6,466 bases of DNA from a virus (taxonomy: Duplodnaviria; Heunggongvirae; Uroviricota; Caudoviricetes), in the IMG/VR virus record IMGVR_UViG_2606217106_000014, positions 1 through 6,466 of that record, one strand, 5' to 3'. The notes under the pieces are model-generated. The model saw nothing but the letters and a program-made list of their open reading frames with translations. It did no database searches and was not told the DNA's origin. Positions 1 to 6,466 of the stretch are shown piece after piece. The stretch's first letter is position 1; each line of letters begins with the position of its first letter. The position numbers and the translations under genes were made by a program.

Positions 1-328
1 CACAAGCAACTGATAATGCCCCCGGAGCAGGAGCATCTGTAGCACAGCGCGGGGTGTCGATAAGTTCCACTGGAACCAGAGTCGGAGAGGCCGGAAAAGA
101 TTGTGATACTGTAGGGCCTACAATAGTTGGAGGCATTCTACGAGAAATACGTCCTTCTCTTTGCCAGAGGCGTAGCCATTTAAAAATCAGGTTGTTATCA
201 ACGCCATGTTCCCGGGCCAGTTGTGCAACATTGGCATTTGGTTTCGAAGCCAGTTCAACCATATGAAGTTTAAATTCATTAGAAAATATCCGGCGGGTTC
301 CGGAGCGCCAGTCTGTAGGTTTATCCAT
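1..328 (-). CDS. IS transposase OrfA-like helix-turn-helix protein, N-terminal part (gene continues past window start)
   Basis: Not in the ORF track because it has no stop in the window. Reverse-strand translation from ATG (complement of 326-328) gives MDKPTDWRSGTRRIFSNEFKLHMVELASKPNANVAQLAREHGVDNNLIFKWLRLWQREGR..., open to position 1. The pattern FSxEFK...VAQLAREHGV..NLIFKWLR is typical of IS OrfA HTH domains. GGAG lies 8 nt upstream on the minus strand. Confidence 0.6.
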   Translation of the reverse strand, partial: MDKPTDWRSGTRRIFSNEFKLHMVELASKPNANVAQLAREHGVDNNLIFKWLRLWQREGRISRRMPPTIVGPTVSQSFPASPTLVPVELIDTPRCATDAPAPGALSVAC

Positions 329-341
329 CAATAGAACTCCG

Positions 342-368
342 TCTAATTTAGAAGGAGCTCTAATTTAG
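342..368. repeat. Two exact 10-bp direct repeats TCTAATTTAG (342-351 and 359-368) separated by 7 bp
   Basis: Read directly from the sequence. They lie between the OrfA start and the putative IS terminus, so they may be subterminal transposase-binding repeats. Confidence 0.5.
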
Positions 369-473
369 TCTGCAAGGAGCAGGTGTTACAGACGGCATTG
401 GCTTTACGCTTACCTTACTCTGAACGCCCACCGCGTCCGTCCCGCACATTCCAGCAACGCATCTGGAGGTAAC

Positions 474-1520
474 GTGCGGGTATTACTTCGACCTGTTCTG
501 GTACCGGAACTCGGGCTGGTGATCGTTAAGCCGGGCCGTGAATCCATGCCGGTATTCCACAATACCCGGGTACTGGTGGAGCCGGAACCGAAAAGCATGC
601 GTAATCTGCCGTCCGGGGTCGTTCCTGCCGTTCGCCAGCCGCTGGCGGAGGATAAATCATTACTGCCATTTTTCAGCGACGAACGAGTGATTCGTGCTGC
701 TGGTGGCGCTGGCGCATTGTCTGACTGGTTACTGCGCCATGTTAAATCCTGCCAGTGGCCACACGGCGATTATCACCACAGTGAAACCGTCATTCACCGT
801 TATGGTACCGGCGCAATGGTGTTGTGCTGGCACTGCGACAACCAGCTGCGCGACCAGACCTCCGAATCACTCGGGCAACTTGCTCACCAAAACCTGTCTG
901 CATGGATGATTGACGTCATACGCCATGCAATGAATGGCTCGCAGGAACGGGAATTATCGCTGGCTGAATTATCCTGGTGGGCGGTCCGCAATCAGGTGGC
1001 GGACGCGCTACCGGAAGCGGTATTACGTCGTTCGCTGGGGTTGCGTGCGGAAAAAATCCGCTCAATGTACCGTGAAAGCGACATCGTACCGGGAGAGCAG
1101 ACCGCCACCAGCATACTGAAGCAGCGCACAAAAAATCTTGCGCCGCTGCCTCACGCCCACCAGCAAACCCCGCCACAGGAAAAGACGGTGGTCAGCATTG
1201 CTGTTGATCCGGAGTCTCCGGAATCTTTAATGAAGCGACCTAAACGTCGCCGTTGGGTAAATGAGAAATATACGCGCTGGGTAAAGACACAGCCGTGTGC
1301 GTGTTGTGGTAAGCCAGCCGACGATCCCCATCACCTGATTGGTCATGGTCAGGGCGGAATAGGGACAAAAGCCCACGATATTTTCACGCTACCGTTGTGT
1401 CGGGAGCATCACAACGAACTTCATGCTGATCCGCTGGCATTTGAAGAAAAGCATGGTTCCCAGATTGATTTAATTTTTCGTTTTCTTGATCGCGCCTTTG
1501 CAACCGGCGTGCTCGGGTAA
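474..1520 (+). CDS. DUF968-family prophage protein (YdfU-like) with C-terminal Cys/His HNH-like motif
   Basis: 348-aa ORF with GTG start preceded by GGAGG (465-469). C-terminus CACCGKPADDPHHLIGHGQGGIGTKAHDIFTLPLCREHHNELH has CxxC...HH...C..HH..H spacing resembling an HNH/zinc-finger nuclease fold. Position immediately upstream of rusA and Q matches lambdoid nin regions. Confidence 0.8.
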   Translation: MRVLLRPVLVPELGLVIVKPGRESMPVFHNTRVLVEPEPKSMRNLPSGVVPAVRQPLAEDKSLLPFFSDERVIRAAGGAGALSDWLLRHVKSCQWPHGDYHHSETVIHRYGTGAMVLCWHCDNQLRDQTSESLGQLAHQNLSAWMIDVIRHAMNGSQERELSLAELSWWAVRNQVADALPEAVLRRSLGLRAEKIRSMYRESDIVPGEQTATSILKQRTKNLAPLPHAHQQTPPQEKTVVSIAVDPESPESLMKRPKRRRWVNEKYTRWVKTQPCACCGKPADDPHHLIGHGQGGIGTKAHDIFTLPLCREHHNELHADPLAFEEKHGSQIDLIFRFLDRAFATGVLG

Positions 1521-1532
1521 AAGAGGTTACTG

Positions 1533-1907
1533 ATGCGTATAGAGTTTGTTTTGCCTTACCCGCCGACGGTGAACACCTACTGGCGTCGTCGTGGCAGCAC
1601 ATATTTTGTATCAAAAGCCGGTGAGCGTTATCGCCGGGATGTGGCACTTATTGTCCGCCAGCAGCGGCTGAAATTAAACCTGTCCGGAAGGCTGGCAATA
1701 AAAATTACTGCAGAGCCACCGGATAAGCGCCGTCGTGACCTGGACAATATTCTGAAAGCACCACTGGATGCACTGACGCATGCGGGGCTTCTCATAGACG
1801 ACGAGCAGTTTGATGAAATCAATATTGTGCGCGGTCAGGTCGTTCCCGGTGGGCGGTTGGGCGTGAAAATTTACGAAATAATGCATGACGGGCAGGTCAA
1901 AAAATGA
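1533..1907 (+). CDS. rusA: RusA-family Holliday junction resolvase (crossover junction endodeoxyribonuclease)
   Basis: 124-aa ORF with RBS AAGAGG (1521-1526). PPDKRRRDLDNILKAPLDALTHAGLLIDDEQ matches the RusA catalytic core of E. coli RusA ([30 protein letters not shown]), as recalled. Confidence 0.9.
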   Translation: MRIEFVLPYPPTVNTYWRRRGSTYFVSKAGERYRRDVALIVRQQRLKLNLSGRLAIKITAEPPDKRRRDLDNILKAPLDALTHAGLLIDDEQFDEINIVRGQVVPGGRLGVKIYEIMHDGQVKK

Positions 1908-2725
1908 AGCTGGAAGATTTACCGAAATACTATTCCCCGAAATCGCCTGGCCTGACCGATGCGTCCGCCTCGACATCAAAAGATGCGCTGAGTATCACTG
2001 ATGTGATGGCCGCGCAGGGCATGACACAAAATCGGGCTGAGATGGGTTTTTCTGCGTTCCTTAGGAAAATGGGCATTAGTATGAATGACAGAGAGCGGGC
2101 AACAGAATTGCTGACAGAATATGCACTCAGTCGGTGTGATCGCGTGGCGGCGTTAAGAAAACTCCCGGCAGAAATAAAACCGGTAGTGATGCGCATTATG
2201 GCTTCGTACGCTTTTGAGGATTATGCCCGCAGCGCAGCGAGTAAAAAGCAGTGCCCTTGTTGCTATGGGGAAAAATTTATTGAAAGCGTAGTTTTTACAA
2301 ACAAGGTCCAGTATCCGGATGGTAAGCCGCCGGTATGGGCAAAGTGTACGAAAGGTGTGTATCCGTCTTACTGGGAAGAATGGAAAAAAGTCAGGGAGGT
2401 GGTAAAAGTTGCCTGTCCGGAGTGTGGCGGAAAGGGTGAGGTTTCCACCGCCTGTAAGGATTGCCGTGGGCGTGGTGTCGCCATTCATCGTGAAGAGTCG
2501 GTAAAACGTGGTATGCCTGTTATCAGAGACTGCCAGCGTTGTGGTGGTCGTGGCTGTGAAAGACTACCATCAACGGAGGCATTTAATGCCATATGCAAAG
2601 TGACGAGTGCTATCACGCTTGATACGTGGAAAAAATCAGTGAAACGCTTTTACGATACGTTGGTGGTTCGGTTTGACATTGAAGAGGCATGGGCGGAGCG
2701 GCAGTTAAAGAGGGTAACGCGATAG
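1904..2725 (+). CDS. Q: Lambda-family late antiterminator Q with expanded CxxC zinc-binding region
   Basis: 273 aa. N-terminus (YYSPKSPGLTDASASTSKDALSITDVMAAQGM) and C-terminus (TWKKSVKRFYDTLVV...RVTR) align by eye with lambda Q. Four CxxC motifs, three of them CxxCxGxG (CPECGGKG, CKDCRGRG, CQRCGGRG). ATG overlaps the rusA stop (ATGA at 1904-1907). Confidence 0.85.
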   Translation: MKLEDLPKYYSPKSPGLTDASASTSKDALSITDVMAAQGMTQNRAEMGFSAFLRKMGISMNDRERATELLTEYALSRCDRVAALRKLPAEIKPVVMRIMASYAFEDYARSAASKKQCPCCYGEKFIESVVFTNKVQYPDGKPPVWAKCTKGVYPSYWEEWKKVREVVKVACPECGGKGEVSTACKDCRGRGVAIHREESVKRGMPVIRDCQRCGGRGCERLPSTEAFNAICKVTSAITLDTWKKSVKRFYDTLVVRFDIEEAWAERQLKRVTR

Positions 2726-2730
2726 TGTTG

Positions 2731-2775
2731 TTGATTTTTCCCGAATCTGTGGTAAATTTGCTCTAACGATGGGCG
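2731..2775 (+). promoter_or_regulatory. pR'-like late promoter with qut (Q-utilisation) site
   Basis: TTGATT (2731-2736), 16-bp spacer, extended -10 TGgTAAATT (2750-2758), then TGCTCTAACGATGGG. This closely resembles lambda pR' (TAAATTTGACTCAACGATGGG), including the AACGAT pause-inducing element (2765-2770). Sits directly downstream of Q. Confidence 0.7.
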
Positions 2776-2806
2776 TTTTATGCCTGACGTTATAAGATTT
2801 TTTACA

Positions 2807-2831
2807 CCCCGCCGCCTGGCGGGTTTTTTTA
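2807..2831 (+). terminator. tR'-like intrinsic terminator
   Basis: Stem CCCGCC (2808-2813) / GGCGGG (2818-2823), loop GCCT, then T7 (2824-2830). Predicts a short pR' transcript of about 65 nt. Confidence 0.75.
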
Positions 2832-2952
2832 TGACTGAAATCGCGTCAGTACAGTAAACGCGCTGGTGGCGGTGAATACCTGTCTTTCAGCTTGCTGGCT
2901 TTTTCGACAAGAGTTATTGGTGTGTCACGTTAACCGGAAAAGGGAAAAAGAC

Positions 2953-3150
2953 ATGCTAAAACAGCAGGATATGACAGAAACCGCCAGAGTAGTGTTTAAT
3001 GAATTAAGCGTTACCGAACCGGCGACAGTCGGGGAGATTGCACAGAATACTTACCTTTCACGCGAACGCTGCCAGTTAATACTGACCCAGCTGGTTATGG
3101 CGGGTCTGGCAGACTATCAGTTCGGTTGTTACAGACGCCTTCCGCAGTGA
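2953..3150 (+). CDS. Small hypothetical protein (65 aa), possible winged-helix DNA-binding protein
   Basis: ATG at 2953 preceded by AAAAGGGAAAAAGAC. Translation MLKQQDMTETARVVFNELSVTEPATVGEIAQNTYLSRERCQLILTQLVMAGLADYQ has an HTH-like segment (TVGEIAQNTYLSRERCQLIL). The track's upstream start at 2866 has no RBS. Function unknown. Confidence 0.45.
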   Translation: MLKQQDMTETARVVFNELSVTEPATVGEIAQNTYLSRERCQLILTQLVMAGLADYQFGCYRRLPQ

Positions 3151-3160
3151 AGGCTTTTTT
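3137..3160 (+). terminator. Intrinsic terminator overlapping the stop codon of the small ORF
   Basis: Stem GCCTTC (3137-3142) / GAAGGC (3149-3154), loop CGCAGT, then T6 (3155-3160) and ATTT. Confidence 0.65.
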
Positions 3161-3177
3161 ATTTGTGGTAAATGGGC

Positions 3178-3208
3178 GGCTGGTGGGTGTTAGGGGCACC
3201 CACCAGCC
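3178..3208. promoter_or_regulatory. Perfect 12-bp inverted repeat GGCTGGTGGGTG-N7-CACCCACCAGCC upstream of the methyltransferase
   Basis: Read directly. No T-run follows, so it is not a canonical terminator; could be an operator or RNA processing/stability element. It is preceded by TGTGGTAAAT (3164-3173), which duplicates the pR' -10 region (2748-2757). Confidence 0.4.
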
Positions 3209-3300
3209 ATCTGCTCATGCGTTGGGTTCACAAGCAAACCTCAGGCCCACTGCTTTGCGCAAAAGCAGAATGAGCCTATCAGAGACAGGCTTAATGATCC

Positions 3301-4350
3301 ATGCTTAATACTGTAAAAATATCCAGTTGTGAGTTAATCAACGCCGACTGCCTGGAATTTATCCGGTCGTTACCCGAAAATTCTGTTGACCTGATAGTCA
3401 CGGACCCGCCGTACTTTAAAGTGAAGCCTGAGGGCTGGGATAACCAGTGGAAGGGCGACGATGATTACCTGAAGTGGCTGGACCAGTGTCTGGCGCAGTT
3501 CTGGCGGGTGCTGAAACCTGCCGGAAGTCTTTACCTGTTCTGTGGTCATCGCCTGGCATCTGATATCGAAATCATGATGCGTGAACGCTTCAGTGTGCTG
3601 AACCATATTATCTGGGCGAAGCCGTCCGGACGCTGGAACGGATGCAACAAGGAAAGCCTGCGGGCGTATTTCCCCGCCACAGAGCGCATTCTGTTCGCGG
3701 AACATTATCAGGGGCCGTATCGTCCGAAAGATGCCGGGTATGCGGCGAAGGGCAGTGCACTGAAACAGCATGTGATGGCCCCGCTGATTTCTTACTTTCG
3801 TGATGCGCGCGCGGCCCTGGGGATAACGGCAAAACAGATTGCAGATGCCACAGGAAAGAAAAACATGGTGTCGCACTGGTTCAGTGCCAGTCAGTGGCAG
3901 TTGCCGAACGAAAGCGATTATCTGAAATTACAGGCGCTGTTTGCCCGGGTGGCAGAAGAGAAACATCAGCGCGGTGAACTGGAAAAGCCCCACCACCAGC
4001 TGGTGGATACGTATACGTCACTGAACCGGCAGTATGTGGAGCTGCAGAGTGAATATAAGCATCTGCGGCGGTATTTTGGTGTGACGGCGCAGGTGCCGTA
4101 CACGGATGTGTGGACACATAAACCGGTGCAGTTCTATCCCGGGAAACATCCGTGCGAAAAACCGGCAGAAATGCTGCAGCAGATAATCAGCGCAAGCAGT
4201 CGTCCGGGTGACCTGGTTGCAGATTTTTTTATGGGCTCAGGTTCAACGGTAAAGGCGGCTATGGCGCTTGGGCGTCGTGCAATTGGTGTTGAGCTGGAGA
4301 CCGGACGTTTTGAGCAGACAGTCAGGGAAGTTCAGGATTTAATCGTTTGA
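3301..4350 (+). CDS. Orphan DNA N6-adenine methyltransferase, beta class (N6_N4_Mtase type)
   Basis: 349 aa. Motif IV DPPY near the N-terminus (LIVTDPPYF) and motif I FxGxGS near the C-terminus (DFFMGSGSTVKAAMALGRRAIGVE), i.e. the permuted IV->TRD->I order of beta-class amino-MTases. No restriction endonuclease partner in the window. Confidence 0.9.
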   Translation: MLNTVKISSCELINADCLEFIRSLPENSVDLIVTDPPYFKVKPEGWDNQWKGDDDYLKWLDQCLAQFWRVLKPAGSLYLFCGHRLASDIEIMMRERFSVLNHIIWAKPSGRWNGCNKESLRAYFPATERILFAEHYQGPYRPKDAGYAAKGSALKQHVMAPLISYFRDARAALGITAKQIADATGKKNMVSHWFSASQWQLPNESDYLKLQALFARVAEEKHQRGELEKPHHQLVDTYTSLNRQYVELQSEYKHLRRYFGVTAQVPYTDVWTHKPVQFYPGKHPCEKPAEMLQQIISASSRPGDLVADFFMGSGSTVKAAMALGRRAIGVELETGRFEQTVREVQDLIV

Positions 4351-4399
4351 AACGGATGAGATTGCAGAATTAATTACGCACCATTATTATTCTGCTCCC

Positions 4400-4475
4400 G
4401 GCCCTTTAGCTCAGTGGTGAGAGCGAGCGACTCATAATCGCCAGGTCGCTGGTTCAAATCCAGCAAGGGCCACCA
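4400..4475 (+). tRNA. tRNA-Ile2 (anticodon CAU, ileX/ileZ-like; automated tools may call it Met)
   Basis: 76-nt cloverleaf: acceptor GGCCCTT/AAGGGCC, D-arm GCTC...GAGC, anticodon loop CTCATAA, T-arm GCTGG-TTCAAAT-CCAGC, discriminator A, encoded CCA. Near-identical in layout to E. coli ileX as recalled. Confidence 0.85.
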
Positions 4476-4482
4476 TCACATA

Positions 4483-4559
4483 CCGCCATTAGCTCATCAG
4501 GAAAGAGCGCCAGCCTTCGAAGCTGGTTGCGCGGAGTTCGGGTCCCCGAAGGCGGTCCA
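4483..4559 (+). tRNA. tRNA-Arg-like, apparent anticodon UCG, with non-canonical features
   Basis: D-arm GCTC...GAGC, anticodon stem CCAGC/GCTGG with loop CTTCGAA, T-loop TTCGGGT, 3' CCA. Acceptor CCGCCAT/AAGGCGG has one mismatch and starts with C; the T-stem has one mismatch. Boundaries +/- 2 nt. Confidence 0.6.
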
Positions 4560-4572
4560 TTATCTGTATCCT

Positions 4573-4649
4573 GCGTTGTTAGCTCAGCCGGACAGAGCAA
4601 TTGCCTTCTAAGCAATCGGTCACTGGTTCGAATACAGTAGAACGCGCCA
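4573..4649 (+). tRNA. tRNA-Arg (anticodon UCU)
   Basis: Acceptor GCGTTGT/AGAACGC (one mismatch), D-arm GCTC...GAGC, anticodon stem ATTGC/GCAAT with loop CTTCTAA, T-loop TTCGAAT, discriminator G, encoded CCA. Confidence 0.8.
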
Positions 4650-4664
4650 CACTTATTTTCCCTG

Positions 4665-4688
4665 GCTCGCTTTTGCGGGCTTTTTTTT
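4665..4688 (+). terminator. Intrinsic terminator downstream of the tRNA cluster
   Basis: Stem GCTCGC (4665-4670) / GCGGGC (4675-4680) with one G-U pair, loop TTTT, then T8 (4681-4688). Confidence 0.6.
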
Positions 4689-4900
4689 AAATGTCTCATA
4701 ATTCAGGCGGTTGACTGTTGTCTGGTTTGCGGGGAGTTTGTTAAAAGAAACTGGCATGGTGAATCCCCCTGTGCGGAGGGGCAATCAGCAACTGGTGTTT
4801 TGTCACCGACCCTTATCCTTTCTGTGCGGGTTCAGGTGCTGATACTGAACTCACCGGGAGGCACCCGGCACCATGCAATGGCACATAGCGCCACTCTCCA

Positions 4901-4925
4901 GCCCCTCTCCGGAGGGGCTTTCTTA
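4901..4925 (+). terminator. GC-rich hairpin with weak U-tract (terminator-like or RNA structural element)
   Basis: Perfect 8-bp stem AGCCCCTC (4901-4908) / GAGGGGCT (4913-4920), tetraloop TCCG, then TTCTT. Confidence 0.35.
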
Positions 4926-4930
4926 TGGAC

Positions 4931-4958
4931 AAAAAAATCCCGCGCTGGGAGACGCGGG
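4931..4958 (-). terminator. Minus-strand intrinsic terminator
   Basis: On the minus strand: stem CCCGCG (4958-4953) / CGCGGG (4944-4939), 8-nt loop, then A and T7 (4937-4931). Confidence 0.45.
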
Positions 4959-5152
4959 CGGCAAGGAATAAACAACAAAACGTGAAGTAATATTTCAGTT
5001 GGCGAATAATATCCGACAGTAATCACTCTGCGCAATAGCGCGGCCTTTTTCGTATTGCGGGCTGTTGTCTATCTTCTGCCATTGTCCTGTAACTTCCGGA
5101 CTTCAGCCCGCTCCTCATTTTACTCACAATATTATCCAGGCCGGGAGGATTC

Positions 5153-6466
5153 ATGGCATTTAAACACTATGACGTGGTCAGGGCGGCGTCGCCGTCAGAC
5201 CTTGCGGAGCGACTGACACAAAAACTGAAGGAAGGCTGGCAGCCGTTTGGCAGTCCTGTGGCTATCACGCCTTATACACTGATGCAGGCCATTGCCGCAG
5301 AGGGTGATGTGACCACGCCTGTGGTTGTGCCCGACACAGGGGCTGGTGGCTCTCCGGGAGTGGCTACCACTGAACCGGAGTATTACTACGTTATTCCCCA
5401 GGCCGGGCAGTCGAACGGTATGGCCTATGGTGAGGGGCTTCCTCTGCCGGAGACCTATGATCGCCCTGACTCCCGTATTAAGCAGCTGGCCCGTCGCAGC
5501 ACTGTGACGCCGGGTGGTGATACCTGTGCATACAATGACGTTATTCCGGCAGACCACTGTCTGCATGATGTTCAGGACATGAGCGCACTTAACCATCCTC
5601 ATGCAGACCTGAGTAAGGGCCAGTACGGGACTGTCGGTCAGGGGCTGCATATTGCCAAAAAACTGCTGCCTTATATCCCGCAGAATGCCGGGATTCTTCT
5701 GGTGCCCTGTTGCCGTGGCGGGTCTGGTTTAACCGTGGGTAATGACGGCACGTTCAGCGAAACGTCTGGCGCATCGGCAAATTCAGCCCGCTGGGGAGTG
5801 GGTAAACCGCTGTATCAGGATTTTCTCTTCCGTACAAAAGCGGCGCTGTCGAAGAACCCGAAAAACAGGCTTCTGGCCGTGGTATGGATGCAGGGGGAAA
5901 ATGATCTTGCGGACGGCAGTCAGCAGCACAGCGGCCTGTTTACCACTATGGTGCAGCAGTTCAGGGCTGATATGGCTGCATATTCTGCACAGTGTGTTGG
6001 CGGAAGTGCTGGCTCGGTGCCGTGGATTTGTGGTGACACCACGTATTACTGGAAGAATCTTAACGCCGATAAATATGAGGCGGTATATGGCGGTTACAAG
6101 GGCAGGGAAGCACAGAATATTTTCTTTGTTCCTTTTATGACGGATGAGAATGGACAGAGCACGCCAACGAATGCTCCGGCGGAAGACCCGGATATTGTGG
6201 CTGTCGGGTATTACGGTGCAGCATCCCGAACCCAGGGCAGTTTTGTTTCGACACAGCGTGACAGCCATTTCAGCTCATGGGCACGCAGGGGCGTCATTTC
6301 AGACCGTCTGGCCTCAGCTATTATGCTCCATGCAGGGCGCACGGCTGAATTGATGCGCGGGCAGACCGTGACACCACCGGATGAGAAGCCGTCACCTGAT
6401 ACACCATCAAAACCGTCCACGCCACCCGCAGACACCACGACGATGAGTACGCTATTTGCTTACCGG
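5153..6466 (+). CDS. nanS-p: NanS-p-type prophage sialate O-acetylesterase (DUF1737 N-domain + SASA/SGNH esterase domain), 5' partial - runs off window end
   Basis: Not in the ORF track because there is no stop in the window; 438 codons open from ATG 5153 (RBS GGGAGGA) to 6466. Translation MAFKHYDVVRAASPSDLAERLTQKLKEGWQPFGSPVAITPYTLMQAIAAEG... then YYYVIPQAGQSNGMAYGEG (GQSN catalytic-serine block), and a Pro/Thr-rich linker TPPDEKPSPDTPSKPSTPPADTTT near the window end. Confidence 0.85.
   Translation, partial: MAFKHYDVVRAASPSDLAERLTQKLKEGWQPFGSPVAITPYTLMQAIAAEGDVTTPVVVPDTGAGGSPGVATTEPEYYYVIPQAGQSNGMAYGEGLPLPETYDRPDSRIKQLARRSTVTPGGDTCAYNDVIPADHCLHDVQDMSALNHPHADLSKGQYGTVGQGLHIAKKLLPYIPQNAGILLVPCCRGGSGLTVGNDGTFSETSGASANSARWGVGKPLYQDFLFRTKAALSKNPKNRLLAVVWMQGENDLADGSQQHSGLFTTMVQQFRADMAAYSAQCVGGSAGSVPWICGDTTYYWKNLNADKYEAVYGGYKGREAQNIFFVPFMTDENGQSTPTNAPAEDPDIVAVGYYGAASRTQGSFVSTQRDSHFSSWARRGVISDRLASAIMLHAGRTAELMRGQTVTPPDEKPSPDTPSKPSTPPADTTTMSTLFAYR

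Follow-up and report, generated by a model that had tools for sequence, protein, structure and literature searches.

In a 6,466-nt window of viral DNA (Caudoviricetes; IMG/VR record IMGVR_UViG_2606217106_000014, positions 1 to 6,466), two convergent small regulatory RNA (sRNA) genes fill the 503-bp noncoding interval between a tRNA cluster and a NanS-p-type esterase gene. This DNA represents the late-regulatory part of a lambdoid prophage. The gene on the plus strand belongs to the STnc100 family, and the gene on the minus strand encodes an Hfq-type sRNA (Table 1). An initial annotation had described the interval as about 500 bp where stxAB, the Shiga toxin (Stx) genes, normally sits, and it had offered three readings: an ancestral empty site, a deletion scar, or a slot holding a non-protein element. 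The last of these was right. We conclude that the interval is very probably the standard sRNA dyad module of the lambdoid late region, in a form that has no protein moron 5' of it. Convergent Hfq-binding sRNA pairs between a moron coding sequence 3' of pR' and a conserved phage open reading frame (ORF) were described in Sakai prophages Sp3, 4, 5, 9, 10, 11, 15, and 17 (Tree et al. 2014, PMC4104026). A 2021 review placed such dyads in at least eight prophages and called the reason for the arrangement unclear (PMC7873438). Thus, the interval represents an element known from earlier work, in the configuration that is most common; its biology was described between 2014 and 2026, and there is no departure from it here.

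The plus-strand gene matched the Rfam STnc100 model over its full length (model positions 1-206) with 143.2 bits, compared with a gathering score of 47 (E=1.3e-32). Within it we located a closing stem (4754-4761/4869-4876), an invariant core (4852-4877), a terminator stem (4900-4919), and a U-rich tail reaching to about 4927. The fold of this RNA had a z score of -3.15. We then evaluated the structure in an alignment of 46 distinct relatives. In the scaffold 98.6% of the alignment cells were paired, while slid controls reached 38-50%, and compensatory change was present in 7 pairs, compared with 1.7 +/- 0.7 in column shuffles (0/500). The conserved helices are the closing stem, a CCCCC/GGGGG hairpin, a GGGUUCAG/CUGAACUC stem, a CCGGG/CCCGG hairpin, and the terminator. 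Two hairpins of the scaffold are invariant and one stem carries GC-to-AU exchanges. Cassette-like exchange among the relatives affects two segments, namely, the loop in the center and the unpaired stretch that links the scaffold to the terminator. A structured sRNA whose seed can be exchanged would be expected to show this pattern.

STnc100 was also present in all of the toxin-less relatives examined, and it occupies the same place in VT1-Sakai, Stx2a phages, a 933W-like phage, Sakai Sp4, and O104:H4. Its family member EcOnc27 of Sakai, which is sRNA103 of EDL933, is bound by Hfq, as determined by cross-linking and analysis of cDNA (Hfq-CRAC), and runs at about 235/247 nt on northern blots (PMC4104026; PMC7873438). 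RNA of the EcOnc27/sRNA103 family has been detected in outer membrane vesicles. The northern probe for EcOnc13 covers, in another prophage, the region equivalent to the candidate STnc100 promoter (Tree et al. 2014, PMC4104026). For this promoter, we propose TTGTCT (4718-4723), an 18-nt spacer, and an extended -10 element, TGtTAAAAG (4739-4747). A motif, TTGTTAAAA(A/G)A, lies 7-8 nt 5' of GCATGG in 45 of the 46 relatives. From this candidate promoter, STnc100 would start at the conserved GCAUGG (4754), in agreement with the 5' end of the STnc100-related RNA PasD. The hexamer TTGACT (4711-4716) was rejected as the -35 element, as it is 25 nt from the conserved TAAAAG and so too far away.

STnc100 modules can also occur in tandem. 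In E. coli G1/2 (CP060083; locus L215 1576-2268) and in 19 IMG/VR loci, two full STnc100 modules follow one another in the stretch from the tRNAs to nanS-p, plus a weak third match. The first module of L215 is 99.7% identical to window positions 4573-4921 and the second is 83% identical to 4695-5329. The interval in the window looks like a mosaic of two module types. A 486-bp "insertion" in some relatives (H43-H47), considered as foreign cargo, is actually a second tandem STnc100 module.

The 3' end of the minus-strand RNA directly abuts STnc100, with the boundary at 4930/4931. Near this end the RNA has a G/U-rich stretch (4983-4967, GUUUUGUUGUUU), the seed CCUUGCC (4966-4960), a terminator stem (4958-4939), and a U-tail (4938-4931) with U7 running to 4931. 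Over 5112-4931 it differs at 5/182 positions from an sRNA of enteropathogenic E. coli (EPEC), making the two 97.3% identical, and at 4/182 positions from that of Sakai Sp4. For the 5' end (5112) we adopted the EPEC estimate (182 nt), and the RNA may begin further upstream. A 35-nt northern probe of Tree et al. (2014) for EcOnc08/21/42 matches exactly within this gene. The seed is invariant in 37 variants of the RNA. In EPEC, sequencing of ligated RNA interaction partners (RIL-seq) recovered 767 chimeras of the homologue with the 5' untranslated region (5'UTR) of cfa and 197 with that of dppA; further partners are tir, espC, perA, gadX, and emrA, and the target motif, GGCA(A/G)GG, is complementary to CCUUGCC (PMC8550237).

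The candidate promoter boxes of the minus-strand gene overlap the ribosome-binding site and the start codon of nanS-p (ATG at 5153). There is also a candidate extended -10 element within the gene, TGaAATATT (4997-4989, minus strand), about 5-7 nt before CACGUUUUG and present in 36 of the 37 variants. This internal element could yield a form of about 55 nt like the AsxR class. AsxR and AgvB form a family of anti-sRNAs that have a conserved 3' region of ~42 nt and short primary transcripts (51-60 nt) from a proximal promoter. They are minus-strand sRNAs of other prophages whose functions in trans are proven (PMC4104026). No match to the Rfam models for AsxR (RF02703) or AgvB (RF02702) was found in the window at E<=1; AsxR of the 933W-like phage L008, as a control, scored 88 bits. 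With no model match and visibly unrelated sequences, membership in either family was rejected. The equivalence is one of position only: the minus-strand RNA is convergent with STnc100 and abuts it at the moron site, as AsxR and AgvB do. This partner slot is polymorphic in 114 STnc100 loci, where it holds the window type, AgvB-like RNAs, AsxR, or one of several others.

We compared the interval with four named systems. Sakai Sp4 is like the window in having ileZ1-argN1-argO1, a 489-bp spacer, and the NanS-p-type gene ECs_1088, and it is likewise toxin-less. The spacers align end to end, and the target of the northern probe is identical. However, the central variable loop of STnc100 differs (alignment columns 155-210), and the tRNAs are preceded by an AraC-family regulator gene in Sp4 and by a DNA methylase gene in the window. 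Hfq-CRAC peaks of EcOnc08 and EcOnc21 lie in the Sp4 spacer, and that of EcOnc42 lies in Sp15 (PMC4104026). The initial annotation had reasoned that the interval would be an ordinary spacer if it aligned end to end with spacers of stx-negative prophages and gave no transcript. The first part holds for Sp4 and O104:H4. However, published data show transcription and Hfq binding of homologous copies. We therefore regard the interval not as a silent spacer of the ordinary kind, and not as an empty site either.

In the EcOnc27/AsxR dyad of the Sp5/933W type, as in the window, a plus-strand STnc100 gene abuts a convergent minus-strand Hfq sRNA gene in the stretch from the moron site to nanS-p. In the 933W-like phage L008, STnc100 (6254-6459, plus strand) is followed by AsxR (6461-6513, minus strand), which is the same layout as in the window. 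The two also share the block at 5028-5135, which is the 5' half of the minus-strand RNA and the leader of nanS-p and is 92.6% conserved in L008 (6541-6648). In contrast to the window, a 1335-bp stx2AB cassette precedes the dyad, and the seed-like segment and terminator of STnc100 differ. The minus-strand partner there is AsxR (53 nt), which acts as a sponge of FnrS and shows no similarity that we could detect to the partner in the window. In L008, the 3' half of the minus-strand RNA is replaced by this unrelated AsxR, which has its own promoter, and the conserved 5' block may serve there as a leader, as promoter context, or in a longer isoform. Elsewhere in L008 (655-850), in the ant region, Rfam gave above-threshold matches to isrK and C4 antisense RNA/a1b1, which have no bearing on the interval.

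The PP6 sRNA of EPEC E2348/69 (Pearl Mizrahi et al. 2021, PMC8550237) has the same terminator and CCUUGCC seed as the minus-strand RNA of the window and the same position 5' of the esterase gene. In PP6 (L005 1600-3193), however, an IS4-like insertion sequence, ISEc13, interrupts STnc100 at the equivalent of window position ~4776, whereas STnc100 of the window is intact. The convergent minus-strand sRNA of PP6 is intact and, by RIL-seq, expressed (PMC8550237).

PasD1 and PasD2 of EPEC are distantly related to STnc100 and lie, like the dyad in the window, directly 5' of a sialate esterase gene (Zhu, Shabalina & Storz 2026 preprint). PasD and the STnc100 of the window both start with GCAUGGUGAAUCC, and their scaffolds and lengths are similar. 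However, only the first ~25 nt and the scaffold are common to them: the window has neither the UGUGAG seed of PasD nor its terminator. PasD2 also has no convergent partner, its esterase gene starts within ~90 nt of the terminator, and a BLAST comparison of the window with the PasD2 locus aligned only the start of the esterase gene. PasD2 scores only 41 bits on the STnc100 model, under the threshold, and resembles the window in the scaffold only. Therefore, the window copy is STnc100 proper, and we ruled out that the plus-strand RNA, a clear member of the family, is PasD.

These data can be combined into a model of how the dyad works. Homology, structure, terminators, and the junction described below come from the window itself; transcription in lysogens, Hfq binding, and RNA partners were published for near-identical copies. 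The module would read, in order, as the tRNA terminator, a 4-nt moron junction, STnc100 with its own promoter and terminator, and the convergent minus-strand sRNA. Each sRNA would be transcribed in the lysogen from a promoter of its own, bind Hfq, and base-pair in trans. The minus-strand RNA would pair through CCUUGCC beside its terminator, and STnc100 would pair through the variable single-stranded segment between scaffold and terminator. By analogy with the published copies, the RNAs of this window would have RNA targets as well. We propose that in the lysogen three plus-strand terminators would prevent transcription of the tRNAs and any moron from reaching nanS-p and the lysis genes and that upon induction Q-modified RNA polymerase coming from pR' would read through all three. 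The established behavior of lambda Q is the basis for this proposal.

Several observations weigh against reading the interval as a pair of trans-acting sRNA genes. In the minus-strand RNA, 0/45 predicted pairs showed compensatory change, because the copies are 90-99% identical and offer too little variation, and the z score of its fold was -1.81. A consensus sigma-70 scan called no STnc100 promoter, only the minus-strand candidate, and expression of this window's copy from its own promoters is presumed from the homologues. The reported sizes also disagree, leaving both 5' ends uncertain: the minus-strand RNA is given as 182 nt in EPEC and ~271 nt on northern blots of enterohemorrhagic E. coli (EHEC) (PMC4104026), and relatives of STnc100 range from 172 nt (PasD) to 235/247 nt (EcOnc27). 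Finally, reviews list no confirmed direct target or phenotype for EcOnc27 or EcOnc42 and leave the physiological functions of STnc100/EcOnc27 and EcOnc42 open (PMC7873438).

The last point would also fit a purely cis-acting spacer, in which the hairpins are a terminator stack insulating nanS-p and the lysis genes and the short RNAs are by-products without targets. The initial annotation had noted the density of hairpins, and we confirmed it: the region 2700-5300 has 9 terminator-like sites, compared with 3.1 +/- 1.8 in shuffled sequences, and 5 of these (4 distinct) fall within the 503 bp of the interval. The distinct sites are 4664-4681, 4900-4919, and 5028-5043 on the plus strand and 4958-4939 on the minus strand, so that three plus-strand terminators and one minus-strand terminator lie inside 400 bp. 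The third plus-strand hairpin is inside the body of the minus-strand RNA and the nanS-p leader. The arrangement is conserved whatever the cargo, which also speaks for this explanation. However, the explanation does not fit well with the Hfq binding of the homologues or with their abundant and specific chimeras with the cfa and dppA 5'UTRs. It also does not account for a CCUUGCC seed and an STnc100 scaffold that are conserved while other segments are swapped, and the positional counterparts AsxR and AgvB act in trans. We therefore consider a purely cis-acting spacer improbable. An insulating role as such is compatible with the sRNA dyad and is part of that explanation.

We also considered whether the dyad is more than two trans-acting sRNAs, which we regard as rather doubtful. 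A minus-strand RNA of ~271 nt would overlap the first ~50 nt of nanS-p in the antisense direction, and in the lysogen it may gate nanS-p and the lysis genes in cis, either as an antisense RNA or by transcription interference. The G/U-rich GUUUUGUUGUUU stretch, together with the abundant dppA 5'UTR chimeras in EPEC, may fit a GcvB-like direct repressor; this would mirror AgvB, the anti-GcvB sponge in the same slot of other prophages. Lastly, the boundary TGTsTCAyAATTCAG, where stx2, stx1, TerB-like, and other cassettes end, may be a defined recombination joint for moron exchange.

To place the toxin cassette relative to the interval, we compared window positions 4300-5400 with an Stx2a phage (L003) and the 933W-like Stx2 phage (L008) by sensitive BLAST. 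Two collinear blocks were found: L003 2128-2514 corresponds to 4302-4687 of the window and L003 3850-4407 to 4692-5254, and the same was observed for L008. The left block stops at the end of the tRNA terminator, whose homologue is annotated as a terminator in phage 06-3462, and the right block starts 41 nt past the stop codon of stx2B. Between the blocks the Stx2 phages have 1335 bp, made up of the stx2 promoter, stx2A, and stx2B. Therefore, the stx2 cassette corresponds to only four bases of the window, 4688-4691. The claim that the whole ~500 bp stands where stxAB normally sits is thus wrong, as everything from 4692 to the start of nanS-p is also present in the toxin phages, 3' of stxB. After stx1B, the same module opens with ...CTCAATTCAG, and STnc100 is found at full length 75-80 nt after both stx1B and stx2B. 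The left boundary of the module, TGTsTCAyAATTCAG, is common to the window and Stx2 phages of the Sp5/933W type and is invariant.

We then looked at this junction in a sample of IMG/VR prophage contigs, which is biased because the contigs were fetched by exact motifs of the two RNAs. Among the 127 loci with both flanks, 101 have a junction of 3-6 nt like that of the window, making this the commonest state. The others have, at the same site, a 537-624 bp cassette with an ORF of ~108 aa (MVFSALNIYHSYGV...), a 757-bp cassette with a 143-aa TerB-like ORF, or a cassette of ~1353 bp with three ORFs (70 aa, 69 aa, and TerB-like). The non-stx cassettes (L010, L046, L054, L056, L062, and others) finish in ...AAATTTTTAAA, as does the empty junction. 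A separate observation concerns the start of the stx2 cassette: its first ~30 nt (ATATCTGCGCCGGGTCTGGTGCTGATTACTTCAGCC; L003 2515-2550 / L008 4886-4920) resemble window positions 4821-4843 inside STnc100. This resemblance may have arisen by chance, or an sRNA copy may once have lain upstream of stx2A and left it as a relic.

If the prophage descended from a phage with stx or another moron, the junction would be a deletion scar from which the cassette was precisely lost; recombination between T-runs is one way in which this could have happened. Right up to 4687 and 4692, the flanks share ~90% identity with those of Stx2 phages. In addition, the T-run and AAA of the junction are the last ~8 nt (TTTTTAAA) of the TerB-type cassettes and of those with the 108-aa ORF, so microhomology-mediated loss between T-runs would leave exactly the sequence of the window. 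However, the stx2 cassette does not end in TTTTTAAA, and no stx-like sequence was found in the whole window, where the best match was the one within STnc100 (19/23 nt, E=0.31). The arrangement that defines a Shiga-toxin-converting phage, with stxA/stxB between the late promoter/tRNAs and nanS-p, is absent. The interval is also nearer to toxin-less prophages (93-99%) than to any Stx phage, the Q protein is a 273-aa lambda-type Q, the empty junction is common among the sampled loci, and, as shown below, at least 80% of the interval is matched in 938 complete genomes. A cassette loss, had there been one, would bear on just 4 nt and leave the content of the interval unexplained. The data do not strictly separate the ancestral empty site from the deletion scar proposed by the initial annotation, and no stx remnant speaks for the latter; overall, we judge a scar to be very improbable.

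That the interval encodes one or more small proteins is almost certainly wrong. ORFs of 43-67 aa do exist there, such as the 67-aa ORF 4832-5035 (minus strand) and the 61-aa ORF 4800-4985 (plus strand), and some phage records annotate hypothetical proteins. However, none is longer than 67 aa, no ORF within 4650-5152 matched Pfam, and they overlap the structured sRNA genes. No frame is intact in more than about half of the distinct homologues; the rest have frameshifting indels, stops, or a lost start codon. The "hypothetical protein" features that RefSeq places over homologous DNA are flagged pseudogene fragments. We therefore rejected these small ORFs as genes, in line with the initial annotation, which had seen no credible ORF here.

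We next determined how widely the interval occurs. Of 5426 complete E. coli genomes, 938 had a single place that matched at least 80% of it, with identity up to 99.4%; such a place may join separate aligned pieces, although each of the top matches is one piece. Of the 301 phage records with a match, only 18 covered at least 80% of the interval, because the majority of the records are Stx phages, whose matches are confined to the stretches on either side of the cassette. The 99.4% match is in E. coli strain SCPM-O-B-9504. At this locus (L001 4882-6000), an IS5-like element, ISKpn26, lies upstream and the tRNA cluster is down to one truncated tRNA. Over the window as a whole, the best complete E. 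coli genome covered 90% at 92% identity.

The surrounding genes agree with a lambdoid backbone of the Stx type, with Q, a tRNA cluster and its terminator, the sRNA dyad, and nanS-p all present. The gene order given by the initial annotation (Q, pR'/tR', tRNAs, NanS-p) was borne out by Pfam, ARAGORN, and the terminator scan, although it left out a 65-aa ORF and the DNA methylase gene. The tRNAs are ileZ-like (CAT), argN-like (TCG), and argO-like (TCT), with 1, 1, and 2 mismatches to ileZ1, argN1, and argO1 of Sakai Sp4. ARAGORN called the first as Met(CAT); it is one base off Sakai ileZ1, which is annotated as tRNA-Ile with anticodon cat. The 65-aa ORF has a weak winged-helix (TrmB) match of 18 bits, under the cutoff, and a terminator of its own comes after it (3137-3154). 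This ORF may be a further small moron. A repeated 10-mer, TGTGGTAAAT, at 2748 and 3164 was dropped, because chance alone would give ~20 repeats of this kind in 6.5 kb.

Table 1. Features of the 6,466-nt window; coordinates are window positions.
Feature	Position	Strand	Basis or remark
DUF968/NinG-like ORF	474-1520		
RusA	1533-1907		
Q-type antiterminator, 273 aa, lambda-type	1904-2725		PF03589
pR'/tR'-like stretch with strong terminator	2808-2823		Terminator scan
65-aa ORF between tR' and methylase	2953-3150		
N6/N4 DNA methylase	3301-4350		
tRNA cluster, left flank of interval	4400-4475, 4483-4559, 4573-4649	+	ARAGORN, Rfam tRNA matches
Noncoding interval, 503 bp	4650-5152		
Intrinsic terminator closing tRNA cluster	4664-4688 (stem 4664-4681 plus T-run)	+	Terminator scan
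Moron junction (TAAA)	4688-4691	.	Sole counterpart of the stx2AB cassette and of the cassettes of other prophages
Left end of sRNA module (TGTCTCAyAATTCAG...) with candidate STnc100 promoter	4692-4753	+	
STnc100-family sRNA gene (EcOnc27/sRNA103 family)	4725-4930	+	Rfam RF02076
Hfq-type sRNA gene, EcOnc08/21/42 type (EPEC E2348C_1409.E2348C_1408.IGR)	4931-5112	-	No Rfam model
Exact match to 35-nt EcOnc08/21/42 northern probe	5005-5039	+	Tree et al. 2014; probe antisense to minus-strand RNA
Third plus-strand terminator-like hairpin	5028-5050	+	Inside minus-strand RNA body and nanS-p leader
Candidate minus-strand promoters: ATGCCA (5159-5154)-17-GATAAT (5136-5131); TAAAAT (5122-5117)	5117-5159	-	GATAAT found by scan; putative function
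NanS-p-type esterase gene, 5' part, right flank of interval	5153-6466	+	PF08410 (DUF1737) 58 bits, PF03629 (SASA) 46.5 bits

Thus, the apparent hole where a toxin gene would be looked for is occupied by two regulatory RNA genes that gene callers overlook or annotate mistakenly as pseudogene fragments. The true cargo site is the single junction at 4688-4691, which takes stx2 and at least three other types of cassette while the dyad to its right is kept. Because the dyad is kept beside the cargo site, toxin-less prophages still deliver Hfq-dependent regulators, and the partners of their EPEC homologue include cfa, dppA, tir, espC, and perA.

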